Origin: an uncultured virus (IMG/VR IMGVR_UViG_3300029305_010146) | Lineage: Duplodnaviria; Heunggongvirae; Uroviricota; Caudoviricetes | Length of the DNA: 64,000 bases | Virus record (IMG/VR): IMGVR_UViG_3300029305_010146 | Direction: 5' to 3' (one strand) | Shown here: positions 2,590 through 63,321 of the stretch, one piece after another | How positions within the stretch are numbered: the first letter of the stretch is position 1 | Layout of the letters: each line of letters opens with the position of its first letter | Made by a program: the position numbers and the translations under genes | Notes under the pieces: generated by a model | Database searches by the model: none | What the model saw: only the letters and a program-made list of their open reading frames with translations | Told to the model about the DNA's origin: nothing

Positions 2590-5220
2590 TTGTCTAATTA
2601 TAACGGTCTCACTTCTCGTGAAGCAGAAGAAAAGCTTATACAAAACGGTAAAAACTGTTTGAGAGAAGAAAAACCAAAATCCATTTTTAGAATGTTTTGT
2701 GAACAAATTTTTAATTTTACAAACTTCATTCTCGCCGCCGCTATTATAATTTCAATTGTTTTGGGCGACTACGGCGAAGCAGGAATTATTGGTTTTATTA
2801 TTTTACTCAATGCTATAATCGGTGTTGTACAAGAAGGCAGAGCACAGAAAGCATTGGAAGCATTAAAGAAGATGTCCATCGTAAAAGCAACCGTAATCAG
2901 GGATGGAGAAAAGAAGGAAATTTCTTCAGAAGATTTGGTTGTTGGCGACATTGTTCTTTTAGAAGCGGGTCAGCAAGTACCCGCCGACTTAAAACTTTTA
3001 GAAACATTCAACCTCAAAGTTGATGAAAAGGCACTTACTGGCGAATCTATCCCAATCGAAAAAGATGAAAACTTTATCCCAGCAGATGAAACTGTTGGTA
3101 TTAGTGACAGACTCGACCTTGCTTATATGAGCACCATTGTAACCTATGGTCGTGGTATCGGCGAAGTTCGTGCAACTGGAATGAGTACCGAAATCGGCAA
3201 AATTGCCGATATGGTAGGCAAAGAAAAGGATGAACCATCTCCTCTTCAAAAAGGTATGGCAGAGTTGAGCAAAACACTCGGAATTGTGGCAGTAGTTATT
3301 TGTGCCATTATGTTTGTTGTTGGTTTGCTTCAAGGACGAGATATACTCGACCTTTTGATGACTGCCGTCTCTCTTGCTGTTGCTGCTATTCCAGAGGGCA
3401 TTCCTACGATTGTCACAATTGTTATGGCACTTGGTATGCAAAGAATGGCAAAAGTTAATGCAATTGTTAAGACATTACCTGCCGTTGAAACACTTGGTGC
3501 TGTCGGAATTGTTTGCTCCGATAAAACTGGTACTCTCACTCAAAATAAAATGACTGTCGTACAAACTTATTGCGACGGAAAGTTCACAGACTTAACGGAT
3601 GTCCATCCAGAAGTAAAAGAACATTTTCTTAACGGTTTCGTTCTATGTAATGATGCATCTATTTCTTCCGACGGCAAAGAAATCGGTGACCCCACAGAAA
3701 CCGCACTCGTTGCCTTCGGTCTCAAACATAACATTATCAAGAGCGAACTGGAAAAAGAAATTCCTCGTTTTAATGAGAAAAGTTTCGATTCTGATAGAAA
3801 GTTGATGACCACCGTACATCGTACACACAATGATAATTGCATTTCTTACACGAAGGGTTCCACTGACGAACTTCTCAAAAGATGCGAATATATTTTAGAT
3901 AATAACAAAATTCGAGACATTCGTGATGCAGATATTCAGAATATTGAAAATGCAATGAAACAAATGTCTGACGAAGCACTTCGTGTTCTTTCTCTTGCAA
4001 TTCGCTTCGACAACGAAAATGCAGAAGAAGATGCCCTCATTTATGTTGGTATGCTTGGTATGATTGACCCAGAAAGACAGGAAGTAGTAGAATCCGTAAA
4101 GATATTCAAGCGTGCTGGTGTTAAAACCGTAATGATTACTGGTGACCACAAAGATACTGCTTTTGCTATTGCAAAAAGACTTGGTATCGCTGAAGATAAA
4201 TCCGAGTGCATTATGGGCCACGAAATTGATGAAATGACAGACGACGAACTTCGTGAAAGAGCAAAAACCTTGTCTATTTTTGCTCGTGTTTCACCAGAGC
4301 ATAAGGTTCGTATCGTAAAGGCATATAAAGACAACGGCAATGTTGTTTCTATGACAGGCGATGGTGTAAACGATGCACCTTCTTTAAAAGCGGCAGATGT
4401 AGGTGTTGCAATGGGCATCACTGGAACGGATGTTGCGAAAGGTGCCGCTGACATCATTCTGCAAGACGATTCGTTTACGACTATCGAGAAAGCGATTCGT
4501 GAAGGTAGAAACATTTATGAAAACATTAAAAAATCCATCGTTTTCTCGCTTTCCTCCAACATTGGCGAAATCTTGACAATGTTCACCGCAATTGCAGTTG
4601 GACTTGCCGCACCTTTAAAGGCAGTTCATATCTTGTGGATTAACCTTATTACAGACTCTTTGCCTTGTATTGCACTTGGTGTTGACCCCAACTCTTCTTC
4701 TGATGTAATGAACAAGAGACCAAGGAAAGAAGACGAAAGCATTTTTGCTGGTGGTGCTGTAAGACATATTGCTATCAATGCCGTTCTTATCGCACTCATT
4801 ACACTCAGTGGTTTTTTATTTCCTGCTTTCCAATATCTGTTAAGCAACAATATTCCATTATCATTAAGTGCCATTATTGATGCTTACAAAAATGCTAACA
4901 TTTTAGCATGTGGTCAAACCTATGCATTCTCTATCCTCGCAATTTCAGAACTTTTCCATGCAATTGGAGCAAGAGACGAATACAACACTATCTTTAAATT
5001 TAAGTGGTTTGATAACAAGATGATGATTATTGCTTGTGTTGTTGGCGTTTTAGGTCAAATAGCAGTTACAGAAATTCCATTCCTCACTCAAATTTTTGGA
5101 ACTGTTAGTTTAAGTTTTGTAGAGTGGCTCGCTATTTTTGGTGTTGCTTCTCTCTCACTCGTAATGCACGAGATTATGTATCTCGCACACAAAATCAAAC
5201 ATCGTAAAGGAGATAAATAA
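2590..5220 (+). CDS. Cation-transporting P-type ATPase (Ca2+-type, P2A-like)
   Basis: TGES, IPEG, DKTGTLT, TGD, GDGVND, WINL motifs; probable TTG start at 2590 after AAGGGG. Confidence 0.92.
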   Translation: MSNYNGLTSREAEEKLIQNGKNCLREEKPKSIFRMFCEQIFNFTNFILAAAIIISIVLGDYGEAGIIGFIILLNAIIGVVQEGRAQKALEALKKMSIVKATVIRDGEKKEISSEDLVVGDIVLLEAGQQVPADLKLLETFNLKVDEKALTGESIPIEKDENFIPADETVGISDRLDLAYMSTIVTYGRGIGEVRATGMSTEIGKIADMVGKEKDEPSPLQKGMAELSKTLGIVAVVICAIMFVVGLLQGRDILDLLMTAVSLAVAAIPEGIPTIVTIVMALGMQRMAKVNAIVKTLPAVETLGAVGIVCSDKTGTLTQNKMTVVQTYCDGKFTDLTDVHPEVKEHFLNGFVLCNDASISSDGKEIGDPTETALVAFGLKHNIIKSELEKEIPRFNEKSFDSDRKLMTTVHRTHNDNCISYTKGSTDELLKRCEYILDNNKIRDIRDADIQNIENAMKQMSDEALRVLSLAIRFDNENAEEDALIYVGMLGMIDPERQEVVESVKIFKRAGVKTVMITGDHKDTAFAIAKRLGIAEDKSECIMGHEIDEMTDDELRERAKTLSIFARVSPEHKVRIVKAYKDNGNVVSMTGDGVNDAPSLKAADVGVAMGITGTDVAKGAADIILQDDSFTTIEKAIREGRNIYENIKKSIVFSLSSNIGEILTMFTAIAVGLAAPLKAVHILWINLITDSLPCIALGVDPNSSSDVMNKRPRKEDESIFAGGAVRHIAINAVLIALITLSGFLFPAFQYLLSNNIPLSLSAIIDAYKNANILACGQTYAFSILAISELFHAIGARDEYNTIFKFKWFDNKMMIIACVVGVLGQIAVTEIPFLTQIFGTVSLSFVEWLAIFGVASLSLVMHEIMYLAHKIKHRKGDK

Positions 5221-8032: not shown

Positions 8033-8599
8033 ATGACAGATGTTGAATTGGGAAAGTTTATTTCCTATATTTTAAGACACCATCCAGAAGATGTTGGAAT
8101 TAAATTGGATAAGAATGGATATGCCAATGTTTCTGATTTAATCACTAATATTAATGCAACAAAAAAATATCATAACGAACTATCTGAAGAACGATTGCAA
8201 CGAATAGTAGATACGAATGATAAAAAACGCTATTCTTACGATGAAACAGGAACAAAAATTCGTGCCGTTCAAGGTCATAGCTTTCATGTTGATGTCGCAA
8301 AAAAATCAATTCCTCCAATCACCTTATATCATGGAACTTCAAAAAGTGCTTATGATATTATTAGGAAAAAGGGTATCAACAAAATGAATAGAGATTTCGT
8401 ACATCTCTCTTCTAATAAAGATACGGCAATTGCTGTTGGAATGCGACATGCAAAGAGAAAAGAAAACCTCGTTATTTTAGAAATTGATGTAAAGAAAATG
8501 TTTTCAGACGGATACGATTTTTATGTCGCAGAAAACGGCGTATGGTTGACCGACTTTGTTCCAGCAAAATACATTGACACAATCCACACTATTCGCTAA
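8033..8599 (+). CDS. kptA: RNA 2'-phosphotransferase Tpt1/KptA
   Basis: SYILRHHP, DKKRY, IRAVQGHS, LYHGT, VHLS, NGVWLT motifs. Confidence 0.93.
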   Translation: MTDVELGKFISYILRHHPEDVGIKLDKNGYANVSDLITNINATKKYHNELSEERLQRIVDTNDKKRYSYDETGTKIRAVQGHSFHVDVAKKSIPPITLYHGTSKSAYDIIRKKGINKMNRDFVHLSSNKDTAIAVGMRHAKRKENLVILEIDVKKMFSDGYDFYVAENGVWLTDFVPAKYIDTIHTIR

Positions 8600-16635: not shown

Positions 16636-16658
16636 TTTAAAACTTTTTAAAAAAACAC

Positions 16659-16687
16659 TTGACAAATGAAAATCAATGTGTTATAAT
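16659..16687 (+). promoter_or_regulatory. Sigma-A promoter of tRNA operon 1
   Basis: TTGACA-17-TATAAT with extended TG. Confidence 0.85.
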
Positions 16688-16728
16688 GAGTGTACAATAA
16701 AGAAATCAAGAGAAAGGGGTTCGCAATT

Positions 16729-16830
16729 ATGATGAATCTTCACAATTATGATTATAGACATCTTAATAACGATAACGAACGTAGTGCCGATTCATATTTG
16801 CGAGTCACTGCTTGTTTTTCTGCGGCCTAA
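16729..16830 (+). CDS. Leader peptide 1 (Asn/Asp-rich, 33 aa)
   Basis: AAGGGG RBS; MMNLHNYDYRHLNNDNERSADSYLRVTACFSAA. Confidence 0.75.
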   Translation: MMNLHNYDYRHLNNDNERSADSYLRVTACFSAA

Positions 16831-16856
16831 AGGCCAAAGAACTGATGCAAGATTAT

Positions 16857-16898
16857 TCCCAGTGACTGTGGCACATGCAGTTACTGGGATTTTTTATT
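16857..16898 (+). terminator. Attenuator terminator 1
   Basis: TCCCAGTGACTG/CAGTTACTGGGA stem plus T tract just before tRNA-Asp; 5' arm complementary to AGTCACTG at 16803-16810. Confidence 0.8.
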
Positions 16899-17296: not shown

Positions 17297-17449
17297 TCCT
17301 CGTTAGCTCAGTAGGTAGAGCAAGCGGCTGTGGTAAATTAGCATAAGTAATGCATATTTATCTGGACGGATAAATAGGATATGAGTTCAAATCTTGTATT
17401 TACCTCCATAACCGCTGGGTCGCAGGTTCGAGTCCTGCACGGGGAGCCA
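17297..17449 (+). tRNA. tRNA-Asn(GTT) interrupted by a 77-nt insert (17332-17408) in the anticodon
   Basis: Joining 17297-17331 to 17409-17449 gives a canonical 76-nt tRNA with AGCGG-CTGTTAA-CCGCT, G discriminator and CCA. Confidence 0.85.
17332..17408 (+). ncRNA. tRNA-like cloverleaf nested inside tRNA-Asn
   Basis: GGTAAAT/ATTTACC acceptor, GCAT/ATGC D stem, 8-bp anticodon-position stem, TTCAAAT T loop, TCCA end. Confidence 0.8.
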
Positions 17450-17759: not shown

Positions 17760-17838
17760 CTCCCGATAACTCAGTCTGGTAGAGTGCTTAAATATTTTAT
17801 TTAAGAGGTCGTGGGTTCAAATCCCATAAAGGAGACCA
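17760..17838 (+). pseudogene. Degenerate tRNA gene, anticodon unassignable
   Basis: Good D arm, T arm and CCA, but three acceptor mismatches and an aberrant CTTAAAT-ATTTT-ATTTAAG arm. Confidence 0.65.
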
Positions 17839-18572: not shown

Positions 18573-18601
18573 TTGACAAACCTCAAATTATGTGATATAA
18601 T
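18573..18601 (+). promoter_or_regulatory. Sigma-A promoter of tRNA operon 2
   Basis: TTGACA-17-TATAAT with extended TG. Confidence 0.85.
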
Positions 18602-18622
18602 CACAATGTAAATAAGACCTAT

Positions 18623-18709
18623 GCAGAATTGGTGGAATAGGCAGACACGCCGTCTTGAGGGGGCGGTGCCAGTAATGGCGTATGAGTTCAAGTCTCATAT
18701 TCTGCACCA
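18623..18709 (+). tRNA. tRNA-Leu(GAG)
   Basis: Type II cloverleaf, CCGTC-TTGAGGG-GGCGG, CCA; lies upstream of leader 2. Confidence 0.93.
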
Positions 18710-18758
18710 TAAACAAATTATTAAACTATCAAATTTTTTAGAAAAGGAGTAAATCAAA

Positions 18759-18872
18759 ATGAAGTTCAATATCACTTTTGTACATGAATATGAATATCGC
18801 TATGAACACAGGATTTCAAACATTGAGTCTGTGTCTATTCGTCGTGCAAAAAATGGCGATATTGACCACTAA
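18759..18872 (+). CDS. Leader peptide 2 (His/Glu/Tyr run, 37 aa)
   Basis: AAGGAG RBS; MKFNITFVHEYEYRYEHRISNIESVSIRRAKNGDIDH. Confidence 0.8.
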   Translation: MKFNITFVHEYEYRYEHRISNIESVSIRRAKNGDIDH

Positions 18873-18900
18873 AAAGGTTTACTTCAAAAAGTAGAAGTTC

Positions 18901-18945
18901 AATGCCTGATGACTCAATGTTAGAGTTGTCAGGCATTTTTATTTT
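18901..18945 (+). terminator. Attenuator terminator 2
   Basis: AATGCCTGATGACTC/GAGTTGTCAGGCATT stem plus T tract; 18911-18921 is the exact complement of 18819-18829. Confidence 0.85.
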
Positions 18946-18953
18946 ATCAATAT

Positions 18954-19065
18954 AGGGGAGTATGCAAGTGGCCAAAGCAAGGAGCGGTGAACTCCTGTTG
19001 TTTTAGACTTGGGTGCACATGTGGTCTTTACAACTTCGTTGGTTCAAATCCAACCTCCCCTACCA
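18954..19065 (+). tRNA. Atypical Tyr-body tRNA with GTG at anticodon position and about 40-nt variable arm
   Basis: AGGGGAG/CTCCCCT acceptor, loop CGGTGAA (G33), A discriminator, CCA. Confidence 0.6.
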
Positions 19066-20037: not shown

Positions 20038-20150
20038 GTTGTCGTAGCGGCAATTATGATTTCATCGTATAACGGTTAATACAACAAACTTGAAATTTGT
20101 CCATATAGGTTCGAATCCTATTTATAATCATAATATTTATTCACGACAAC
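20038..20150 (+). ncRNA. tRNA-like RNA (TGA loop) with extended closing stem, no CCA
   Basis: D arm GTAT/ATAC, ACAAA-CTTGAAA-TTTGT, ATAGG-TTCGAAT-CCTAT, closed by ATTATGATT/AATCATAAT and GTTGTCGT/ACGACAAC. Confidence 0.6.
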
Positions 20151-20333: not shown

Positions 20334-21545
20334 ATGAAATTTAATTGCAAATCTCGCAAAGGTTTCACACTTATCGAACTTCTCGTGGTTATAGGCATCC
20401 TTGCTGTGTTGGCAGCAATTGCTATTCCAAGTGTTGCTGGACTTATTGATAGAGCGAATGTTTCTGCTGACAATACTAATGCCAATGAATATACAAACGC
20501 AATTGAAAGATTTACATCGGAGTATGAACTCTATTGCCAAGATGTAGCATCTGGCAAAATAAAGGATGCGGATAATGATGGTAAACCCGACAATATGGAT
20601 GCAGCACAAGGTCGAGTTTTTAATGTTACTAAAGTAGTTACTCGTGCAGATATTACCGCACTCGAAAGTACTGGACTTGGTGATGCAATGATTAGTAGAG
20701 ATACAAAATATCCTCTTAATGGCATTACTCTCAAATCCATTATTGAGAACTATACAAAAACTAGTTCTGTCACATTCGAACCCAAACAAAGCGATAAAGT
20801 TTATTGGTATTCTCCAGATTGTGGTTTAGTAGTCGTTGCTAATCCTAATTCATCTAAAGATGCTCTTAATAATCTTGTAATTTCGGGTAAAGATGCAAAA
20901 GGCAATACATTAGGTTCTGGAACCAATTGGGTTGATGTTACGAACTACAGTCTTATCAAGATTATATGTGGTAATGGTGCTGACGGTTTGCATTACCACA
21001 ATGACGAATTGTTCACAGGTATTTGCGATAGTGATGGCGAATGGTATGACAATGGCGTACAAGGACCAATTTGCTTCTTATCGGGCACAAAAATCACCAT
21101 GGCAAATGGAACACAAAAAAATATTGAAGATATTATTGTAGGCGATAAGGTAGTATCTTATAATGTAGAAACTAAAATTTTCTATATTACAACTGTCTGT
21201 AACACCTTTGTTAGAGAAACAGAAGTTTATTACACAATAAGATTCGATGATGGAACAGAACTCAATTTAACTGGATGCCATCCGCTATTAACACCAAAAG
21301 GATTCGAAAACATTACTGGTGTCCATGAAAGATTAAATATGGTTGATGCACTTGATGTTGGTGATGAAGTTATTTCTGTCAATGATACCAAAAAAATAGT
21401 TTCTATTGAAAAAATAATAGAAAAAACAACTGTATATAATTTCAATGTTATAGACGACGAAGAAATTATCATTGGTAAAGATAATGATTCTAATGACACA
21501 TATATTGCAAACGGAATTGTATCACACAATGCAGATTATTCTTGA
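20334..21545 (+). CDS. Type IV pilin-like protein with C-terminal Hint (BIL-type) domain
   Basis: KG|FTLIELLVV prepilin motif; Hint CFLSGTKITMANG...TGCHPLLT...VYNFNV...IVSHN at 21072-21530. Confidence 0.88.
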   Translation: MKFNCKSRKGFTLIELLVVIGILAVLAAIAIPSVAGLIDRANVSADNTNANEYTNAIERFTSEYELYCQDVASGKIKDADNDGKPDNMDAAQGRVFNVTKVVTRADITALESTGLGDAMISRDTKYPLNGITLKSIIENYTKTSSVTFEPKQSDKVYWYSPDCGLVVVANPNSSKDALNNLVISGKDAKGNTLGSGTNWVDVTNYSLIKIICGNGADGLHYHNDELFTGICDSDGEWYDNGVQGPICFLSGTKITMANGTQKNIEDIIVGDKVVSYNVETKIFYITTVCNTFVRETEVYYTIRFDDGTELNLTGCHPLLTPKGFENITGVHERLNMVDALDVGDEVISVNDTKKIVSIEKIIEKTTVYNFNVIDDEEIIIGKDNDSNDTYIANGIVSHNADYS

Positions 21546-23158: not shown

Positions 23159-24145
23159 ATGAAATTTAATTACAAATCTCGCAAAGGTTTCACTCTTATT
23201 GAACTTCTTGTAGTCATTGGTATTTTAGCAGTTCTCGCTGCTATTGCTATTCCATCAGTTGCTGGTCTCATTGACAGAGCAAACGTTTCTGCTGACAATA
23301 CCAATGCGAGCGAGATGACGAATGCTATGGAGAGATTTGTATCTGAATATGAATTATTCAGACAAGATATTGCATCGGGCACATTTGATAAAGACAATAT
23401 GGATGCCACACAAAGCAGAGTGTACAATGTTACAAAAGCAGAAACTCGTACCGACATTGAGAAACTCGAAAGTAAAGAAGGTCTAAATGGTATTCGCATC
23501 GATATCGATAACAAATATGCACAAAACCACGAAACTGCAAAAGCAGTAATGCGGAATTATATGAAGACCAGTTCTTCCACTTTCGAACCAAAACAGAGCG
23601 ATATGACTTATTGGTATAATACAGTCACTGGTTATACTGTTGTTGCAGAAAAAGATACAGATACTTCAACCCTATATACTAAACTACCAACACAAGTAGA
23701 ATATGTGAACAACACTCCTGCATCAATTAATGAATGGATTGACTTATCTTCTACTGTTGTCATCCCAGATATTGCTTTAATTCATGTGCATAAATGGCCA
23801 ACTCTGGATGCAGAAGGCAAACATCAAATATGCATGCATTATTCTGGTGAAATTCCAGACGATTCGATTGGTGAATTATTCTTAATTTGGGATTTAGGCG
23901 AATATGAACAAGGTGAACTACCAACACTAAACTATACGAATTCTTATAGAGAACCATGGAAGATGACTGGCAGCAATCCGCCGTGCAATGGAGAATATAA
24001 TGTGAGGTTGCATGGATACAAACCAGAACAATTAGATAAAGTAGAATACTTTAGATGGTGTTACAAATACAACGAAAATGGTCAAACAAAGTTTGTGTAC
24101 TCACCAATTTATGCTTTTGCATTCAATGATTTACCAAACGAATAA
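23159..24145 (+). CDS. Type IV pilin-like protein
   Basis: Same KG|FTLIELLVVIGILAVLAAIAIPSV N-terminus; unrelated C-terminal domain. Confidence 0.88.
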   Translation: MKFNYKSRKGFTLIELLVVIGILAVLAAIAIPSVAGLIDRANVSADNTNASEMTNAMERFVSEYELFRQDIASGTFDKDNMDATQSRVYNVTKAETRTDIEKLESKEGLNGIRIDIDNKYAQNHETAKAVMRNYMKTSSSTFEPKQSDMTYWYNTVTGYTVVAEKDTDTSTLYTKLPTQVEYVNNTPASINEWIDLSSTVVIPDIALIHVHKWPTLDAEGKHQICMHYSGEIPDDSIGELFLIWDLGEYEQGELPTLNYTNSYREPWKMTGSNPPCNGEYNVRLHGYKPEQLDKVEYFRWCYKYNENGQTKFVYSPIYAFAFNDLPNE

Positions 24146-25353: not shown

Positions 25354-26838
25354 ATGAAATTTAATGCAAAATCTCGTAAAGGTTTCACCTTGATTGAACT
25401 CCTCGTGGTTATTGGCATTCTTGCCGTTCTCGCTGCAATCGCTATCCCTTCCGTTGCTGGTTTAATCGACAGAGCAAACCAGTCTTCCGATAACACAAAT
25501 GCAAAAGAGATGACAAATGCCATCGAGCGCTTCACTTCTGAATACGAACTATACTGTCAAGATGTAGCATCTGGCACATTAAATGTAACAGACCTCGATT
25601 CTGCACAAGGAAGGGTATTCAACGTAACGGAGATTGAAACTCGAAAAGGTGTAGAGATGACCGAAAACCTCGGTTATACACACGACATAGTAGCAGTTGA
25701 CAGAGATACAAAATATCCAGTTAACGAAGTTACTGCAAAAAAGGTTATCGAAAACTTTATGAAGACCAGTTCTTCCACCTTTGAACCAAAGCAGAGTGAC
25801 TGCAGTTATTACTATTCTCCACAGGTTGGTAAAGTAGTTGTTGCTAAAACTGGTAGTACCATTGCAGAATTAAATAAAATTGCTATGGAAGATGAAGCAG
25901 AGTATGCAACAATTAACAATGGCGAAATCATTGAATGGATTAACCTTTCCGTTAATGCAGGAAAAGAAGTAAATGACTGGACCTATGTTAATGCAGCAAC
26001 CCCAACGAACAATCAATATAAAGAATTAGGTACAAAAGCACCTACTTTTAATATTGAGTGGAGTGCAAAGAATGAAGCAACTGGTCAACCAGTTACGGTT
26101 GGTGTTTCTATTTCTAATTCAAATTATTCTGGTAATGGCACAACTCCTTGTACGATGACGAATGTCCCAATGGGCAAATATGCATTGGTAGCAACTTATG
26201 CTGGTAATGAGTACAAATTCAACTTGCTTGTTTACCAAGAAGGAATTCAAACATTCAAGTTAACAATTCCAGGAACTAATATTTCTGTTGGTTCTGATAA
26301 CGATACATATGTACCAAGTGGCGGTTCTACACCAAGCACCCCAAGTACTCCCGAACCACCAATTCAAAGTTGTCAACATACAAATACCAAAGTAATCAAT
26401 GCAAAAGAGGCAACCACTGATGAAAAAGGTTATACTGGCGATACTTGGTGCAACGACTGTAACACTAAAATTGCAAGTGGTACAGAAATTAATTTCTTAC
26501 ATACAGTAACGATTGATTTTACAAATGGTTATTCTGTTAATCAAGTTTCGCGTAGTGATTTGGTTTATTTTTCAATGGATGGCGGTAATACATGGGTTGA
26601 CCTTGCAACACTTCTACCACAAGAAATATCCCCTTATCAAAGAACAACTATAACAATCGAGTGTTCTCAAATTAAAGCAGATATACGATATATGAATGGC
26701 CCAGGATATCAATTTTTGTCTAATGATTTAGGTGTTAACTTTGTGTGTTTGGCAATGAATACCGTAACAGATAATTTGATATTAACAGAAGATATTGTAA
26801 TTACAATTTCATTTGACCACTCTGGTGGTGCCAATTAA
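25354..26838 (+). CDS. Type IV pilin-like protein
   Basis: Prepilin motif; Pro-rich linker and CQH...GYTGDTWCNDC module shared with 61381; ends HSGGAN. Confidence 0.88.
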   Translation: MKFNAKSRKGFTLIELLVVIGILAVLAAIAIPSVAGLIDRANQSSDNTNAKEMTNAIERFTSEYELYCQDVASGTLNVTDLDSAQGRVFNVTEIETRKGVEMTENLGYTHDIVAVDRDTKYPVNEVTAKKVIENFMKTSSSTFEPKQSDCSYYYSPQVGKVVVAKTGSTIAELNKIAMEDEAEYATINNGEIIEWINLSVNAGKEVNDWTYVNAATPTNNQYKELGTKAPTFNIEWSAKNEATGQPVTVGVSISNSNYSGNGTTPCTMTNVPMGKYALVATYAGNEYKFNLLVYQEGIQTFKLTIPGTNISVGSDNDTYVPSGGSTPSTPSTPEPPIQSCQHTNTKVINAKEATTDEKGYTGDTWCNDCNTKIASGTEINFLHTVTIDFTNGYSVNQVSRSDLVYFSMDGGNTWVDLATLLPQEISPYQRTTITIECSQIKADIRYMNGPGYQFLSNDLGVNFVCLAMNTVTDNLILTEDIVITISFDHSGGAN

Positions 26839-39710: not shown

Positions 39711-40403
39711 TTACTTTTTACCGAAAAGTCTTTTCCACAAGGATGCCTTTTGAGGGGAACTCTCTTCGTTTTTCACTTCAATAGACTGTTTCTCCTCATT
39801 TTCTTCGACTTTCGAAGTCTCTTCCGATTCACGAACCTGTACCTCGCTTACTTGCGGTTCGCAGTTCTGCGAAACCTCTTGCTTTTGCTCTTGCTCTTGA
39901 CAAACTTCAGCGAAAAGTTTCAGTTGGTGTTCGAAATTTTCATCGGACATACAAAATTCGATAACATTCTCCGCATTACTGTCGCCAAACTGTCGCAAAG
40001 AATTCAGCATCTCTTTCATATTTTTAATCATAAGAGACTTCTTCACAGAATTCTGTACATTGCGCAACTGCGGACTGTTTTCTGGAACTCGATAACCATA
40101 CAAATCTTTCGTTGCCTGCTTCACAATAGCATTTTCTTTCTGAATAGCATTTTCATAAGAATAAATAAGCGGGTTCTTCGAAATCTTCACGATGGTTTTC
40201 TTTGCGATGTCAAAGCGCTTTACTTCTTCATCGTTTTCCTGTTTGTTTACCCGAAGTTCAAGGGACGCCAAAAGATAGATTACCTTTGTGTAAGTACTTG
40301 CAATAATATCGTACTTTTTGACAGATATGTTGTAGGAAGGTAAATCAACCTTCGTCATGTCTACCAAAGACAATACATTCTGCAAGTTTTCCCGACCATT
40401 CAT
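39711..40403 (-). CDS. Hypothetical protein with C-terminal amphipathic tail (SLWKRLFGKK)
   Basis: AGGAGG RBS before ATG 40403. Confidence 0.68.
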   Translation of the reverse strand: MNGRENLQNVLSLVDMTKVDLPSYNISVKKYDIIASTYTKVIYLLASLELRVNKQENDEEVKRFDIAKKTIVKISKNPLIYSYENAIQKENAIVKQATKDLYGYRVPENSPQLRNVQNSVKKSLMIKNMKEMLNSLRQFGDSNAENVIEFCMSDENFEHQLKLFAEVCQEQEQKQEVSQNCEPQVSEVQVRESEETSKVEENEEKQSIEVKNEESSPQKASLWKRLFGKK

Positions 40404-40493
40404 TTTTATATCCTCCTTTATATTTTTTAAAATGGTACTAATATAATAATATTCTTTCACCAAAATATTTTCAAAAAATATTTTAAAAACTAC

Positions 40494-40522
40494 TTGACAA
40501 AACAAATCCAATGTGCTATAAT
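40494..40522 (+). promoter_or_regulatory. Sigma-A promoter of tRNA operon 3
   Basis: TTGACA-17-TATAAT; shares AATGTG.TATAATGAGT with promoter 1. Confidence 0.85.
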
Positions 40523-40577
40523 GAGTACAACGAAAGTCGAAAACGACTAAAAATCTTACGAAAGGTAGTGCACAGTT

Positions 40578-40661
40578 ATGAAAAACTTCACCACATCAAC
40601 AAGTCCATACGGTACATCGTCCAGTGCTACAACAATTCATAATGTGTCACTGTCTTTTTGA
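40578..40661 (+). CDS. Leader peptide 3 (Thr/Ser-rich, 27 aa)
   Basis: AAAGGT RBS; MKNFTTSTSPYGTSSSATTIHNVSLSF. Confidence 0.8.
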   Translation: MKNFTTSTSPYGTSSSATTIHNVSLSF

Positions 40662-40693
40662 CATGCATTAAATGCATATGTGCAGATTAGATT

Positions 40694-40732
40694 GCCAGTG
40701 ACCACACTATGTGATTACTGGTTTATTTTTTT
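40694..40732 (+). terminator. Attenuator terminator 3
   Basis: GCCAGTGACCACA/TGTGATTACTGGT stem plus T tract abutting tRNA-Thr; 5' arm pairs with TGTGTCACTG in the leader. Confidence 0.8.
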
Positions 40733-40806
40733 GCAGATATAGTTTAATGGTAGAATAGTTGTTTCGTAATCATCAGATGTCAGTTCGATTCTGACTATCT
40801 GCTCCA
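40733..40806 (+). tRNA. tRNA-Thr(CGT), weak anticodon stem
   Basis: GCAGATA/TATCTGC, loop TTCGTAA, CCA; two T-T mismatches in the anticodon stem. Confidence 0.72.
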
Positions 40807-40810
40807 ATAT

Positions 40811-40886
40811 GCTGGTGTAGCTCAATAGGCAGAGCAATTGATTTGTAATCAATAGGTTGCAGGTTCAATTCCTGTCACCAGCTCCA
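40811..40886 (+). tRNA. tRNA-Thr(TGT)
   Basis: ATTGA-TTTGTAA-TCAAT, CCA. Confidence 0.94.
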
Positions 40887-41340
40887 GAGTGGTTCGACTA
40901 GTTAGATAGCACTTCCGCCCTTAAAGAAAGCCATCTAACAGGATGACAACCTTGCAGTTATCAATAAGCGAATGAGTAGTGGTATATTGAAAGTTCAAAC
41001 TGTTGGTAACAAAATAGTCAATATGCCTTAATGTGTTGTAGAAACTTGCGAAGACTACAACCACCTGCAAACTTCAGTGAGCAGGCGGATACATACATAA
41101 AAGACTTCCGACGGTGAACCCTTTTGAAGCACTGTGTTTTAGGCGGTCATTTATTATAGGGTATATGAGAGTGTTTGTTATAAGAGCATAGTGCTCTTGC
41201 ATGCAAGCAGATATTCCCATATATCACTAAATAAATGATGAACAGCCGAGTTAAGCAGGTAAGCATATTGGTTGCAAACGATATGGTTTTTGGTGGGCAG
41301 GATGAGAAAAGGGCTGGAAGAACGACATCTAACCGTTTTC
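40887..41340 (+). ncRNA. Candidate large structured ncRNA
   Basis: No ORF of 60 aa or more, several helices, 5' and 3' ends partly complementary. Confidence 0.45.
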
Positions 41341-41343
41341 TAT

Positions 41344-41419
41344 GCTGGTGTAGCTCAATAGGCAGAGCAATTGATTTGTAATCAATAGGTTGCAGGTTCG
41401 ATTCCTGTCACCAGCTCCA
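41344..41419 (+). tRNA. tRNA-Thr(TGT)
   Basis: One-nt variant of 40811-40886. Confidence 0.94.
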
Positions 41420-41812
41420 AGGGTTTGTAACAAATGTGGTTCCCTAACAAAAATAAACTTCATTTGTAGTCGCACGGACTTAACGTGCAATACCGATTAT
41501 AAACACTAATGTGTTTCTAATATCTGGTGAACTCTACCAACCTTTCTAAATGGGAGATAGTCCAAAAGCACACCCGTGTGAGGATGAGACAAGTGAGATA
41601 GTTTGTAACCCAGAAGACGAACAGAGAGTTACAAATGACACCTTGAGACAGTGGGGTTTGAAGAAACTGTCGGTTTCGTGAGTTTTCGAAGGCTTTCACA
41701 ATTCAAGTATCGAATACAATAATGTTGGCGAGAATAGGACGATATGGGTAGTTACTATGACATCGCAAAATTGTTTTTAATAACACTTCACTGGCATTTT
41801 CGAAGTGTATAT

Positions 41813-41930
41813 GACCGTAAGTGGAAGTAAGTAACGGAGTAATTAACCGTGAAAGCGAGAACACCGCCCTATGCTAGTTAAGGGGTAGAGAGTTGTACGA
41901 GAACGGGTTTGAGTCCTGACACGGTTGCCA
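41813..41930 (+). ncRNA. Expanded tRNA-like RNA ending in CCA
   Basis: GACCGT/ACGGTT+GCCA, CGGG-TTTGAGT-CCTG T arm, enlarged D and anticodon loops. Confidence 0.55.
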
Positions 41931-41939
41931 TATTTTTTC

Positions 41940-42070
41940 AGATGTGTGGTGTAAAAGTACGATACATAAAATAGCACACCCTGTAGTTGATAACCATAAT
42001 AACCTTTCTATGATACGGCAGAAAGGGGCAGGGAAATCCTACTTGGAGAATCGGGAGTGTAGGCACATCT
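41940..42070 (+). ncRNA. tRNA-geometry RNA with all three loops enlarged
   Basis: AGATGTG/CACATCT, GTGT/GCAC, CCCTG/CAGGG, CCTAC/GTAGG with canonical 2/1/4-nt junctions. Confidence 0.55.
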
Positions 42071-42077
42071 TTTTAAT

Positions 42078-42153
42078 GCAGGTATAGTATAGTTGGTTAG
42101 TATGCGACATTGCCAATGTTGCGGCGCGGGTTCGAGTCCCGCTACTTGCTCCA
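42078..42153 (+). tRNA. tRNA-Gly(GCC)
   Basis: CGACA-TTGCCAA-TGTTG, T discriminator, CCA. Confidence 0.9.
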
Positions 42154-42159
42154 TTATTT

Positions 42160-42247
42160 GGAGAGTTGTCCGAGCGGTTTATGGAGCACGACTTGAAATC
42201 GTGTGATACCTTTGCGGGTACCCAGGGTTCGAATCCCTGACTCTCCG
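42160..42247 (+). tRNA. tRNA-Ser(TGA), CCA not encoded
   Basis: Type II cloverleaf, CACGA-CTTGAAA-TCGTG. Confidence 0.93.
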
Positions 42248-42319
42248 ACCACACAAGATAAGAACCTTCACGTTGGTGTGTGGTGTTAAACCCGTCCTCG
42301 AACGGTAACTAATCTTATC
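42248..42319 (+). ncRNA. HDV-like (theta-type) ribozyme
   Basis: P1 ACCACAC/GTGTGGT, P2 GATAAGA/TCTTATC, P3 ACC/GGT, P4 CCGT/ACGG, J4/2 CTAA. Confidence 0.8.
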
Positions 42320-42332
42320 AAACTCCCAGCAT

Positions 42333-42421
42333 GGAGAAATGTCAGAGTTCGGTTGAATGAGCCCGCCTCGAAAGCGGGTAACCCTGAAAGGGGTTCGGGG
42401 GTTCAAATCCCTCTTTCTCCG
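42333..42421 (+). tRNA. tRNA-Ser(CGA), CCA not encoded
   Basis: CCCGC-CTCGAAA-GCGGG, long variable arm. Confidence 0.92.
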
Positions 42422-42459
42422 AAGATACTCCTCTTTTCCCAGAAGAGGTTTATATATAT

Positions 42460-42548
42460 GGAGTGGTCGCATAGTAGGTCTAGTGCAGCGGTTTGCTAAA
42501 CCGCCGACCGTTTATAGCGGTCCGAGAGTTCGAATCTCTCCCACTCCG
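42460..42548 (+). tRNA. tRNA-Ser(GCT), CCA not encoded
   Basis: GCGGT-TTGCTAA-ACCGC, long variable arm. Confidence 0.92.
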
Positions 42549-42620
42549 AGTGTACAAGATAAGAACCTTCACGTCGGTGTACACTGTTAAATCCGTCTTT
42601 GAACGGTAACTAATCTTATC
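42549..42620 (+). ncRNA. HDV-like (theta-type) ribozyme, second copy
   Basis: Same fold; P1 AGTGTAC/GTACACT shows compensatory changes relative to copy 1. Confidence 0.8.
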
Positions 42621-42633
42621 AACAACCGAACAT

Positions 42634-42726
42634 GGTAGCGTGTCCGAGTGGTTTATGGTGCTCGCCTGGAAAGCGGGTAGTCGTTGTTGAGACGGCTCGC
42701 AGATTCGAATTCTGCCGCTACCGCCA
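42634..42726 (+). tRNA. tRNA-Ser(GGA)
   Basis: CTCGC-CTGGAAA-GCGGG, CCA. Confidence 0.93.
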
Positions 42727-42732
42727 AAAAAC

Positions 42733-42765
42733 AAATCCCAAGCAATTAACTTGCTTGGGATTTTT
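42733..42765. terminator. Bidirectional terminator closing tRNA operon 3
   Basis: AAATCCCAAGCAA/TTGCTTGGGATTT. Confidence 0.8.
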
Positions 42766-50605: not shown

Positions 50606-52192
50606 TTAGTCGCTTTCGCAACTTAACTCCACAAGAACGGGATTTGCTCCATTGTAAGAGTAAGTAAGTACAAAATGTTCAGAAATCATATCCAGTTCAT
50701 AGATATTGACTTCTACGGAAATCTGTGTACCAATAGGCATTTTCAAATCCGTACAAGTTTTCTCAATATCTCTTTGGACATCAAACTCCAAATCATCCAT
50801 ATCTTTACCGACTCTCTCAATGTGTCGCTTACCATACTCCTTTGCATCAACATCAGCAACTACCTTGAAGATATAATGAGTACGAACATAACCCAAAAGG
50901 TCATCCTTGTCGTTAGACAACTCGTCGCTCATTACCTTATCTAAAAGGTCTTTGAAAATGTCAGAAAACAAAGGAGAAGGCTGGAGACCCAAGTCCTTTA
51001 AGTCATTGCCCGTAATAGCAAGATGTTTTTTGTCCGTGCAGTCATTGCCCGCCAATACATCGTCCATCAAAAGACGAACATTGTAAATCTGGTCAAGAAC
51101 TCCGTGGTCGCAAACAACCTGTCTGTTCTGCGCGAGACAGTCTGCGCATCTTACCTTCAATAGATTGAAGGAAGCATCTGCACCAATCTGCGAGAACAAC
51201 TTACGAACCGCCTTTTTGGAAACGGGAACATTTCTGTCGTGGTGTTTAACGAGAGTAGATACCCTATCTATCGTGTCATTGTCAAACTTGAGTCTTCGCA
51301 TAATGTCAATACACATGCTGTAACTCTTGTCGCCATGACCGTAGAAATGACCAACACCGTCGTCATCCACCGTAAAGACAGAAGGTTTGCCGATGTCATG
51401 GAACAGCATTGCAAGTCTCAAGTCCTTATCAGCATCAATATTCTGAACGGAGTGAATGATGTGCTCATACACATCATATACATGCCAATTGTTCTTCTGG
51501 TCGAAGTCAAAGCACGCCTCAATTTCAGGAATAAAGACTGCGATAATATCTCTAAACTCGTGCAATACATCATAAACACCCTTTCCTACGAGCATCTTCT
51601 GTAACTCAACAGAGATTCTCTCACAAGAAACCTTGCGGATTAAGTCCTTATGTGCATGCATTGCCTGCTTCGTTGCATCGTCAATAACAAAACCAAGTTG
51701 GGAAGCGAAACGCATTGCTCGTAAAATTCGAAGAGCATCCTCCTGAAAACGAGCATTCGCATCGCCAACACAACGAATCGTCTTGTTATGTATATCCTCT
51801 GCACCGCCAAACAAATCGACATACTTGTCGCCGTCGAATGCAATAGCATTCATCGTAAAGTCTCTGCGAAGCAAATCATCACGGAGATTTCTTACGAAAC
51901 TCACACTGTCAGGATGACGACCATCGGAATAGTCACCATCTGCTCTGAAAGTCGTAATCTCGTAACTGTCGTTCGGAAATACCACTGTTACCGTACCGTG
52001 CTTTAAGCCCGTCTCGATAATACGATAATCCTTAAAGACATCCTCAACCTCCTGCGGTAAAGCGGATGTGCAGATATCGTAGTCGTGAACATCTCTGCTC
52101 ATCAACTTATCTCTTACACAACCACCTACGAGATATGCCTCATAACCCGCTTGATGAAGTCTCTGCAAAATCAATCTAACCTCACTATTCAT
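50606..52192 (-). CDS. cca: tRNA nucleotidyltransferase (CCA-adding) with HD domain
   Basis: VGGCVRD, DYDICT, RRDFTMNA, EDALRILRA, H...HDIGKP...GH; CCA vs CC/A specificity not determinable by eye. Confidence 0.9.
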   Translation of the reverse strand: MNSEVRLILQRLHQAGYEAYLVGGCVRDKLMSRDVHDYDICTSALPQEVEDVFKDYRIIETGLKHGTVTVVFPNDSYEITTFRADGDYSDGRHPDSVSFVRNLRDDLLRRDFTMNAIAFDGDKYVDLFGGAEDIHNKTIRCVGDANARFQEDALRILRAMRFASQLGFVIDDATKQAMHAHKDLIRKVSCERISVELQKMLVGKGVYDVLHEFRDIIAVFIPEIEACFDFDQKNNWHVYDVYEHIIHSVQNIDADKDLRLAMLFHDIGKPSVFTVDDDGVGHFYGHGDKSYSMCIDIMRRLKFDNDTIDRVSTLVKHHDRNVPVSKKAVRKLFSQIGADASFNLLKVRCADCLAQNRQVVCDHGVLDQIYNVRLLMDDVLAGNDCTDKKHLAITGNDLKDLGLQPSPLFSDIFKDLLDKVMSDELSNDKDDLLGYVRTHYIFKVVADVDAKEYGKRHIERVGKDMDDLEFDVQRDIEKTCTDLKMPIGTQISVEVNIYELDMISEHFVLTYSYNGANPVLVELSCESD

Positions 52193-61380: not shown

Positions 61381-63321
61381 ATGAAATTCAATATCAAATC
61401 CCGTAAAGGTTTTACTTTGATTGAATTACTCGTAGTCATTGGCATTTTAGCAGTGCTTGCAGCGATTGCTATTCCATCAGTTGCTGGTCTTATTGACCGT
61501 GCTAATGTTTCTGCTGACAAGACAAATGCTAATGAAATGACAAATGCTATCGAGCGTTTTACATCAGAGTACGAACTCTATTGCCAAGATGTAGCATCTG
61601 GCAACATCAATACTGCAGAATTTGATAGTATGCAAGGTAGAGTGTACAATGTTACTGGCATTCGTAACCGTACAGGTGTCGAGGCAATCGAAAGCATTGG
61701 TTACACCAACTATGTTACTGGTTTAGATAGAGACACTAAATACCCAGTTAATGAAGCAACTGTTAAAAAGGTTATCGAAAACTATATGAAGACTTCGTCT
61801 TCCACCTTCGAACCAAAGCAGTCTGACTGCTCTTATTACTACTCTCCACAGATTGGTAAAGTAGTAGTTGCTCCAACTGGTAGTACAGCATCCGAAATTG
61901 ATGCAATTGCCAAAGCAAACGGTGCAGATTATGCTTCTGTAAACAATGGTGAACTCATTGAATGGATTAATCTCTCCATCAATGCAGGCGAAGAACAAAA
62001 AGATTGGAACTATAACACTTTTGCAAGTGATACAAAGAATGTATACACTGGTTATACTACAAACGCTAAATACTTTAATGTAAATTGGACTACCGAAGAC
62101 CAGAACGGCAATCCATTACCAGGTGTTAGTCACCACATTAAAATCAGTAATAGTTATCATGAAGCAGAATGCGATACTCCTGGTACTATGAGCATGGTAC
62201 CTGCTGGTAACTATGCATTAAGAATTGAAGATGGTACTTGGTATTACGATTATAATATTCTTATTTACCGTGAAGGTGTGCAAAAGTTCACATTAGACAC
62301 ACCAAGCGGTAAAATTACAATTGGTACTGATTCTGACGAAAAACCTGCTGGTAGCACACCAACCCCAGAACCTCCAGTGGAAGAACCGCCAATTCAACAG
62401 TGTACACACCAAAATACAGAGATTAGAGACCGTGTAGAAGCAACAACTTCTGCCAACGGTTATACTGGTGATACTTGGTGTAAAGATTGCAATACAAAAA
62501 TTGCAACTGGTACAACAATAGATAAAATTGCAACACAGCAATACCCTATTGCTGGCGAGTGGATACTCAATTATGATTTAAGTTATCCAACAAAAGTTTT
62601 GCACCAAGACATTGATTTTACAATGAACGGAACACGATACGATGGTTTTAGACTCACAGGAAATGCCGTCATGGGTACAAAAAATGGCGATATTGCTGGA
62701 ATGTTTGTGCAATGCCAATCCGAATTTTTGGGCAATGAATGGAGCTGTCCTCAATATGTATATTTTGGTCCTGAACCACAAATGGTTTCCGAAGATTTTT
62801 ACAATTGGTTTATTGCCAATGCAGAAGTTTATTACACTTGCTTTGTTGGTGGTTCGCAAGTCTCTATGGCAGACGGAACGACAAAGAACATCGAAGATGT
62901 TATTGTTGGCGACAGAGTTCTTTCTTACAATAGAAACACGAATAGTTTCTATGTCACAAATGTAATTGCTACCAATACAAAGGACGCACTTTGTTATTTT
63001 ACAATCACATTAGATGATGGAACAGAAATCAATACAACTGGCAGTCACCCATTTTTAACTGATAAAGGCTTTGAAAATGTTGCTGGCCACAGCAAAGAAA
63101 CCACTATTGTCGATATACTTACGGTTGGCGATAAGTTAATAACAACAGAAGGTTACAAAACTATTGTTTCTATTGATGTTATTAATAAAAAGACAAAAGT
63201 TTACAACCTTAATGTTGCAGACGACGATGAAGTTAATAAAGGCGAGGATGACGACGAGGAAGATACTTTTGTAGTAGAAGGTGTGGTTAACCACAACCAC
63301 TCTGGCGGTGCTAATGATTAA
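61381..63321 (+). CDS. Type IV pilin-like protein with C-terminal Hint (BIL-type) domain
   Basis: Prepilin motif; Hint CFVGGSQVSMADG...TGSHPFLT...VYNLNV...VNHN at 62839-63297, then HSGGAND. Confidence 0.88.
   Translation: MKFNIKSRKGFTLIELLVVIGILAVLAAIAIPSVAGLIDRANVSADKTNANEMTNAIERFTSEYELYCQDVASGNINTAEFDSMQGRVYNVTGIRNRTGVEAIESIGYTNYVTGLDRDTKYPVNEATVKKVIENYMKTSSSTFEPKQSDCSYYYSPQIGKVVVAPTGSTASEIDAIAKANGADYASVNNGELIEWINLSINAGEEQKDWNYNTFASDTKNVYTGYTTNAKYFNVNWTTEDQNGNPLPGVSHHIKISNSYHEAECDTPGTMSMVPAGNYALRIEDGTWYYDYNILIYREGVQKFTLDTPSGKITIGTDSDEKPAGSTPTPEPPVEEPPIQQCTHQNTEIRDRVEATTSANGYTGDTWCKDCNTKIATGTTIDKIATQQYPIAGEWILNYDLSYPTKVLHQDIDFTMNGTRYDGFRLTGNAVMGTKNGDIAGMFVQCQSEFLGNEWSCPQYVYFGPEPQMVSEDFYNWFIANAEVYYTCFVGGSQVSMADGTTKNIEDVIVGDRVLSYNRNTNSFYVTNVIATNTKDALCYFTITLDDGTEINTTGSHPFLTDKGFENVAGHSKETTIVDILTVGDKLITTEGYKTIVSIDVINKKTKVYNLNVADDDEVNKGEDDDEEDTFVVEGVVNHNHSGGAND

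Follow-up and report, generated by a model that had tools for sequence, protein, structure and literature searches.

The stretch of DNA considered here (the window) comprises 64,000 nucleotides (nt) of an uncultured virus (IMG/VR record IMGVR_UViG_3300029305_010146) and carries three arrays of transfer RNA (tRNA) genes. The third array belongs to a single compact unit on the + strand at 40494-42763, made up of a promoter, a leader open reading frame (ORF), a terminator, the tRNA genes and a closing terminator. The region ahead of these tRNA genes, termed attenuator 3, has the layout of a leader-peptide attenuator, inasmuch as the ORF starts close to the promoter, 56 nt downstream of the -10 box, and an intrinsic terminator is placed between the ORF and the tRNA genes. 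The tRNA genes were called by ARAGORN and Rfam. The features of the unit are as follows.

40494-40522, + strand: sigma-70-type promoter (TTGACA, 17 nt, TATAAT; 12/12 matches) with a TG before the -10 box (extended -10), homologous to the promoter of attenuator 1
40560-40570, + strand: sequence resembling a Shine-Dalgarno (SD) site, GAAAGGTAGTG, which is also the 5' strand of the helix predicted to sequester the switch strand (anti-antiterminator)
40578-40661, + strand: leader ORF of 27 codons, MKNFTTSTSPYGTSSSATTIHNVSLSF (ATG at 40578, TGA at 40659-40661)
40590-40634, + strand: putative regulatory codons 5-19 (T T S T S P Y G T S S S A T T), 12/15 of them Thr, Ser or Gly; a ribosome here would leave the antiterminator free
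40643-40654, + strand: switch strand (region 2), UGUGUCACUGUC, which has two alternative partners, the terminator 5' arm and the SD/start region
40663-40677, + strand: small hairpin AUGCAU-UAA-AUGCAU between switch strand and terminator, with a counterpart in attenuator 1 (GCGGCC-UAAA-GGCC... region)
40694-40732, + strand: intrinsic terminator, a hairpin at 40694-40722 (-13.3 kcal/mol) and a 10-nt U-tract at 40723-40732 (UUAUUUUUUU); the first tRNA begins at the next base
40733-40806, + strand: tRNA-Thr(CGT), called by ARAGORN and Rfam
40811-40886, + strand: tRNA-Thr(TGT), copy 1, called by ARAGORN and Rfam
40887-41343, + strand: spacer 1, non-coding, 457 nt, seen as RNA contigs in two metatranscriptome studies
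41344-41419, + strand: tRNA-Thr(TGT), copy 2, 99% identical to copy 1
41420-42077, + strand: spacer 2, non-coding, 658 nt, with two promoter-like matches of 10/12 (41695 and 41987)
42078-42153, + strand: tRNA-Gly(GCC), called by ARAGORN
42159-42726, + strand: four tRNA-Ser genes, TGA (42159-42251), CGA (42332-42422), GCT (42459-42549) and GGA (42634-42726)
42733-42763, + strand: bidirectional terminator hairpin at the end of the array

No plausible coding ORF was found downstream of attenuator 3, where the unit consists of the eight tRNA genes and the two non-coding spacers. The leader contains six Thr codons (one ACC and five ACA), seven Ser codons (TCA and AGT twice each, TCG, TCC and TCT), a single GGT and no ACG. 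These counts agree with a preliminary description of this DNA made from the sequence, which gave a peptide of 27 residues with six Thr codons (five of them ACA), seven Ser codons and one GGT. The array content listed there, namely Thr(TGT) twice, Thr(CGT), Gly(GCC) and Ser TGA, CGA, GCT and GGA, was confirmed by ARAGORN and Rfam. That description had also set Thr(CGT) apart as a tRNA without a codon in the leader and with a damaged anticodon stem. This is borne out by the absence of ACG and by the anticodon stem, in which 3/5 pairs and two U-U mismatches are read by hand, while the gene still scores 62 bits as a tRNA. The acceptor and T-arm of tRNA-Thr(CGT) are identical to those of the tRNA-Gly(TCC) genes of two viral contigs (L004:2452-2524 and L005:2499-2571), with a 22-nt exact match over the T-arm and the 3' acceptor strand. 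It may be an anticodon-switched tRNA of the Gly type.

Two comparable units precede the other tRNA arrays of the window.

16658-16897, + strand: attenuator 1, with a promoter at 16658, an Asn/Asp/Ala-rich leader of 33 codons at 16729-16830 (MMNLHNYDYRHLNNDNERSADSYLRVTACFSAA) and a terminator that ends near 16897
18574-18946, + strand: attenuator 2, with a promoter at 18574, tRNA-Leu(GAG), a 37-codon leader at 18759-18872 (MKFNITFVHEYEYRYEHRISNIESVSIRRAKNGDIDH, including the run HEYEYRYEH) and a terminator

Attenuator 1 is followed by an array that reads Asp, Asp, Ala, Asn, ..., Leu, Arg, and attenuator 2 by an array of Tyr, Glu, His, Arg and Ser tRNAs. The alignment of attenuators 1 and 3 reveals a common promoter, ATTCATA, GTCACTG, a T-run, a small hairpin, CCAGTGAC...TTACTGG and a U-tract, around a codon cassette that cannot be aligned. 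The two are paralogues, in which a constant switch looks to be combined with an exchangeable sensor cassette.

Each leader was compared with its own array and with the other two. Expected numbers of decodable codons were derived under strict wobble from the 33 window ORFs of at least 200 codons, whose codon usage served as the background; all ATG ORFs of 20-45 codons in the six frames of the window (347 in number) served as a set of small ORFs for comparison. As in leader-peptide attenuators, the ORF of attenuator 3 is enriched for regulatory codons: of the 26 codons between ATG and stop, 13 can be decoded by its own array, against 3.9 expected (binomial P=3.2e-5), a fraction reached by no other member of the set of 347. 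With respect to arrays 1 and 2 the corresponding values are 3/26 and 5/26, neither of which is significant. Leader 2 matches its own array at 14 of 36 codons (P=1.1e-3), and leader 1 matches its own at 18 of 32 positions at the amino-acid level (P=1.1e-3). All six off-diagonal combinations of leader and array lack significance. Moreover, Leu codons are absent from leader 2, the attenuator of which has tRNA-Leu(GAG) as its sole upstream tRNA.

A further line of evidence comes from folding. The leader regions of all three attenuators fold better than shuffled sequences (z -3.7, -4.0 and -6.4), and each has a strong terminal hairpin. In the minimum-free-energy structure of the full attenuator 3 transcript, the SD/start region (40560-40582) pairs with 40636-40658 in a helix of ~23 base pairs (bp), and the terminator forms. 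Thus, as in known attenuators, a strand is available that would sequester the antiterminator in the absence of translation. An equivalent helix between the SD/start region and the switch strand is found in attenuator 1, built from different sequence. The competing antiterminator of attenuator 3 consists of 11 pairs between 40643-40654 and 40694-40706.

The effect of a translating ribosome was modelled by folding a transcript truncated immediately ahead of the terminator 3' arm, with 28 nt masked around the aminoacyl site of the ribosome. With a single ribosome on leader 3, the antiterminator probability is 0.46-0.88 at codons 2-11 and 0.62-0.88 at codons 17-19, and falls to 0.00 from codon 21 to the stop codon. 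With queued ribosomes, it is 0.46-0.89 throughout codons 2-19 and does not exceed 0.18 thereafter. The regulatory window that folding defines in this way, codons 2-19, includes all six Thr codons, five of the seven Ser codons and the Gly codon. The switch of attenuator 2 is sharper, with an antiterminator probability of 0.03 without a ribosome, 0.88-0.99 at codons 2-17 and 0.02 just beyond. Its limit coincides with His17, which is the end of the HEYEYRYEH run. In attenuator 1, the antiterminator is off from codon 23.

Taken together, these results indicate that attenuator 3 is probably a ribosome-mediated transcription attenuator of the trp style, i.e., one operated by a leader peptide, which stands before tRNA genes and senses decoding capacity. 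The parts, the codon enrichment, the alternative pairings and the scaffold common to the paralogues were all computed or read from sequence; from them we infer that the ORF is translated, that ribosome and RNA polymerase are coupled, that regulation takes place in vivo and how far the transcription unit extends. In the proposed mechanism, transcription would begin at ~40530 from the consensus promoter, and a ribosome on the 27-codon leader would closely trail the RNA polymerase. Rapid decoding of the Thr, Ser and Gly codons would bring the ribosome to codons 20-27 or the stop codon, where it would cover 40643-40654, so that the terminator at 40694-40732 could fold and transcription would end one base before tRNA-Thr(CGT). 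If decoding of the Thr, Ser and Gly codons among codons 5-19 is slow, the ribosome would stall upstream, 40643-40654 would pair with 40694-40706, no terminator would form and the polymerase would enter the array. Without translation, the SD/start region (40560-40582) would bind the switch strand and the terminator would form. With tRNA instead of an amino acid as its product, such a circuit would amount to a feedback sensor of the decoding capacity for its own tRNA set, and its trigger would presumably be a shortage of these tRNAs or damage to them.

The extent of the control along the array deserves separate comment. The Ser tRNA genes lie 1.5-2 kilobases (kb) downstream in what appears to be the same transcription unit, and the codon match, together with the lack of a strong terminator in between, is the reason for supposing that the distal Gly and Ser tRNAs are also under the control of attenuator 3.

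Several results weigh against this interpretation. The SD-like sequence of attenuator 3 (GAAAGG) has its AAGG 4-mer 12 nt from the ATG, compared with 6-10 nt in 23 of the 33 long ORFs; the extended match GAAAGGUAGUG may make up for this atypical spacing. When the full transcript is folded at equilibrium with the ribosome mask, the terminator is retained at every position except codons 2-4. The terminator therefore wins at equilibrium, and any switch must be kinetic and co-transcriptional, as it is in the classical attenuators. A single ribosome at codons 12-16 gives an antiterminator probability of only 0.11-0.25, because the freed 5' untranslated region competes for the switch strand. The energy of the antiterminator duplex was matched by 143 of 1000 dinucleotide shuffles for attenuator 3, by 66 for attenuator 1 and by 43 for attenuator 2, so that this complementarity taken alone does not exceed chance. 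Leader 1 is marginal at the codon level (10/32, P=0.06), and the ACC codon of leader 3 is not read by its array under strict wobble. The promoter-like matches within spacer 2 mean that the Gly and Ser tRNAs may start separately. Finally, no diverged homologue of the leader was found in viral contigs, the phage collection or 401 Bacillota genomes, the only copies being those of the same species.

The preliminary description had already proposed an attenuator, and the promoter, the SD-like sequence, the enrichment for the tRNAs of its own array, the abutting terminator, the predicted position-dependent antiterminator and the two sibling units all speak for that proposal. It needs amendment in three details. 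Firstly, the match between leader and array had been taken to extend to the isoacceptor level. Every Ser isoacceptor class is indeed sampled, but the coverage of all four classes has a chance probability of 0.09 (5 draws) or 0.20 (7 draws), and at least five ACA among the six Thr codons has P=0.07; none of this is significant, and it counts among the points on the negative side. Secondly, GTCACTG (40646-40652) had been described as pairing either with the upstream CAGTG (40622-40626) or with CAGTGAC in the terminator (40696-40702). The pairing with the terminator 5' arm was recovered in masked folds, whereas the thermodynamically preferred competitor is the SD/start region, with its ~23-bp helix; the CAGTG hairpin (5 bp, -7.3 kcal/mol) does not occur in the minimum-free-energy structures of the masked folds of attenuator 3. 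Thirdly, not all Ser codons can act as sensors: five of the seven lie in the regulatory window, but the last two (TCA at 40647 and TCT at 40653) are in or after the switch strand, and a stall there would lead to termination rather than read-through and would give no signal.

Four alternative explanations were considered. The element could be a sensor of general translation rate, in which any slowing of the ribosome, due to antibiotics, starvation or the shutdown that accompanies infection, would open the terminator and the richness in Thr and Ser would be secondary. This would agree with a folding model that depends on where the ribosome is and not on the identity of the codon, and with an isoacceptor match that is not significant. 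We nonetheless consider it unlikely, as each leader is enriched for the amino acids of its own array only, with six non-significant cross-comparisons, and as HEYEYRYEH in leader 2 sits immediately before the loss of antitermination.

An unlikely explanation, too, is that the ORF remains untranslated and the match of its codons is a coincidence, the hairpin and U-tract being either a leaky terminator or an element for processing or stability of the 5' leader that maintains a low constitutive level. The antiterminator complementarity of attenuator 3, which is within the range of its shuffles, and the atypical SD spacing would be expected in that case. It would, however, have to be reconciled with an ATG ORF of 27-37 codons behind an SD-like sequence at all three arrays, in DNA of 35.5% G+C, where stop codons make up ~7% of random codons by arithmetic from the base composition. 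Furthermore, the P values of the codon matches (3e-5, 1e-3 and 1e-3) and the retention of the switch scaffold between attenuators 1 and 3, whose cassettes differ, speak against it.

If the leader ORF were simply a gene for a small protein, followed by its own terminator, and the tRNAs were expressed from other promoters or by read-through unrelated to codons, this would account for the 10/12 promoter-like matches at 40987, 41695 and 41987. It is nevertheless improbable, given the low complexity of the peptide, the recurrence of the arrangement three times with array-specific composition and a U-tract that ends one base before tRNA-Thr(CGT), which leaves no room for a promoter. A leader of the T-box kind, binding uncharged tRNA directly and without the aid of protein, can practically be dismissed: the position upstream of translation-apparatus genes, the probable Firmicute-type context and the terminator/antiterminator layout would suit it, but none of 4227 Rfam families, T-box included, matched 40400-40732 even at E<=1, and the span of only ~160 nt from start to terminator is filled by the ORF.

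The preferred interpretation, a leader-peptide attenuator, can be compared with known systems. Multivalent attenuators of this type are familiar from enterobacteria, where they include the thr leader (with Thr and Ile codons) and those of ilvGMEDA, his and trp. Attenuator 3 resembles them in its short, promoter-proximal ORF with many regulatory codons and in its intrinsic terminator. It likewise has a putative antiterminator that would exclude the terminator and would lose its upstream strand to a ribosome completing the ORF, as well as an upstream strand that would bring about termination in the absence of translation. Unlike them, it would regulate tRNAs and not the biosynthetic enzymes that define the class. 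Further differences are that its anti-antiterminator is the SD/start region and is not located inside the ORF, that its regulatory codons are interspersed (12/15) and form no pure run, that its terminator abuts the 5' end of a tRNA and that its context is AT-rich and Firmicute-like. In Escherichia coli, pheST, which encodes phenylalanyl-tRNA synthetase, is attenuated via the pheM leader peptide. This is likewise leader-peptide attenuation, acting on a part of the translation machinery dedicated to the amino acid that is sensed; however, the product there is a synthetase that restores charging, whereas in attenuator 3 it would be the tRNA itself and several amino acids would be sensed. The T-box riboswitches of Firmicutes also choose between terminator and antiterminator according to the state of one given tRNA, but they bind uncharged tRNA directly and without translation, while the leader of attenuator 3 is an ORF and has no match to the Rfam T-box. 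Thus, attenuator 3 would work like a multivalent attenuator of the trp/thr/ilv type, applied to tRNA genes, and not like a T-box.

In the standard account, the control of bacterial tRNA genes is exerted chiefly on their promoters, through growth rate and the stringent response, and leader-peptide attenuation is described for amino-acid operons and a few synthetases. In the portion of the published literature available to us, nothing was found on leader-peptide attenuation of tRNA genes or arrays. If the proposed function is correct, the ribosome would gauge the supply of particular tRNAs and correct a shortfall, and the silence of redundant or accessory tRNA arrays until they are needed would be explained. 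This bears on the purpose of the extra tRNA arrays carried by phages and mobile elements. The element is short and modular, and could be a natural biosensor for the decoding of chosen codons.

A wider and more tentative proposal is that the window holds a modular family of decoding-capacity sensors, in which a constant scaffold of promoter and switch is combined with an exchangeable codon cassette and each accessory array is turned on only when its own tRNAs are limiting. We regard this as possible. The trigger for such a family could be attack by an anticodon nuclease, or a mismatch of codon usage during infection or the transfer of a large mobile element. Phage tRNAs and anticodon nucleases are the subject of a published paper (PMC10264068). 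If the window belongs to a phage or mobile element, the arrays would be spare tRNA sets, switched on when the decoding of their codons slows, e.g., after an attack that targets tRNAs. Should this be true, tRNA supply would be a feedback-controlled quantity sensed by the ribosome, and the circuit a built-in countermeasure to tRNA-targeting toxins.

Turning to the remainder of the third array, the units of tRNA-Ser and spacer are duplicated (42221-42348 versus 42522-42649, 77%). Neither spacer matches an Rfam family at E<=1 or the phage collection. Compared with shuffled sequences, spacer 1 is well folded (z=-3.35) and spacer 2 is not (z=+0.49). Whole RNA contigs from two metatranscriptome studies cover 40912-41323 and 40901-41314, just within the flanking tRNAs, which gives a weak hint of a discrete RNA of ~410 nt freed by tRNA processing. 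Some RNA contigs of spacer 1 skip ~92-95 nt around 41142-41240, a long hairpin. The RNA contigs of three metatranscriptome runs leave 40561-40734 uncovered; as they are contigs, this has no bearing on expression of the leader.

The stretch was found in animal faeces and bovine gut metagenomes from 15 studies. A related strain (DNA run X9) differs at 12 positions over 40300-40837; among the ten differences listed, nine are upstream of the -35 box and one is in the leader, where C>T at 40605 changes CCA (Pro) to TCA (Ser) and thereby adds one more Ser codon. Contig L047, of the same species, is the sole other copy in the collections, and attenuators 1 and 2 are identical in it. In the 401 Bacillota genomes, the tRNA-Thr portion alone gives matches (at most 90%). 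The pattern GTCACTG..CCAGTGAC..TTACTGG has two matches in genome contigs, both without tRNAs and one of them (L001) in coding sequence, and one match, again without tRNAs, in viral contigs. In metagenome contigs it occurs at 54 loci; L047 is one of them, and the other 53 lack a neighbouring array. The search with the T-arm and acceptor of tRNA-Thr(CGT) retrieved only the tRNA-Gly(TCC) genes of the two viral contigs mentioned above, and no leader unit was seen there. Neither the pattern of the promoter family (0 matches) nor the flanking proteins (39711-40403 and an S41 peptidase) have relatives in viral contigs. The best relatives of the NrdD protein in the phage collection (62-72% identity) come from unverified human-gut contigs, on which no tRNA gene lies within 15 kb of them. 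A blastn match to Phage Phass-1 was rejected as a relative, since only the promoter is similar.

The genes of the window encode NrdD/NrdG, ThyX, dUTPase, dNTP triphosphohydrolase, Tpt1, a CCA-adding enzyme, two DNA methylases and a Holliday-junction resolvase, in addition to DprA-like, PcfJ-like and SprT-like proteins, several proteins with pilin signals and Hint domains, an IscB/HEARO unit and numerous orphan ORFs. None of the 36 window ORFs scanned matched a capsid, portal or terminase family. A Firmicute is a plausible host, with the window as part of a huge phage or of some other large mobile element. The tRNA arrays are accompanied in the window by genes for the Tpt1/KptA RNA 2'-phosphotransferase and the CCA-adding enzyme (8033-8599; 50606-52192, - strand), which suggests a theme of tRNA repair or maintenance.

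Some peculiarities were noted in other tRNA genes of the window. The tRNA-Asn(GTT) of array 1 (17305-17449) has an insertion of 77 nt (17332-17408) in the anticodon loop. This insertion is itself tRNA-like (Rfam tRNA, 39.9 bits at 17332-17405) and is polymorphic, as L047 carries an intact tRNA-Asn (3097-3172). It may represent either a mobile element that resembles a tRNA or an intron of an unusual kind. Two tRNA-like genes were missed by ARAGORN. The first, at 17760-17838 (Rfam, 35.3 bits), has an anticodon arm composed only of A and T and an oversized loop; the second, at 18963-19065, directly follows terminator 2 and has a very long variable region and a CCA end. The call for tRNA-Ser(TGA) at 20058-20130 is only 73 nt long and is devoid of the long variable arm expected of a bacterial tRNA-Ser.

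Two further observations concern other parts of the window. A HEARO RNA (807-1051, - strand; 130 bits) adjoins an ORF for an IscB-like HNH endonuclease (2-799, - strand) at the edge of the window. Four paralogous proteins (20334-21545, 23159-24145, 25354-26838 and 61381-63321) bear the N-terminal methylation motif of type IV pilins, and two of the four end in a Hint/intein-like domain, which is an unusual combination.

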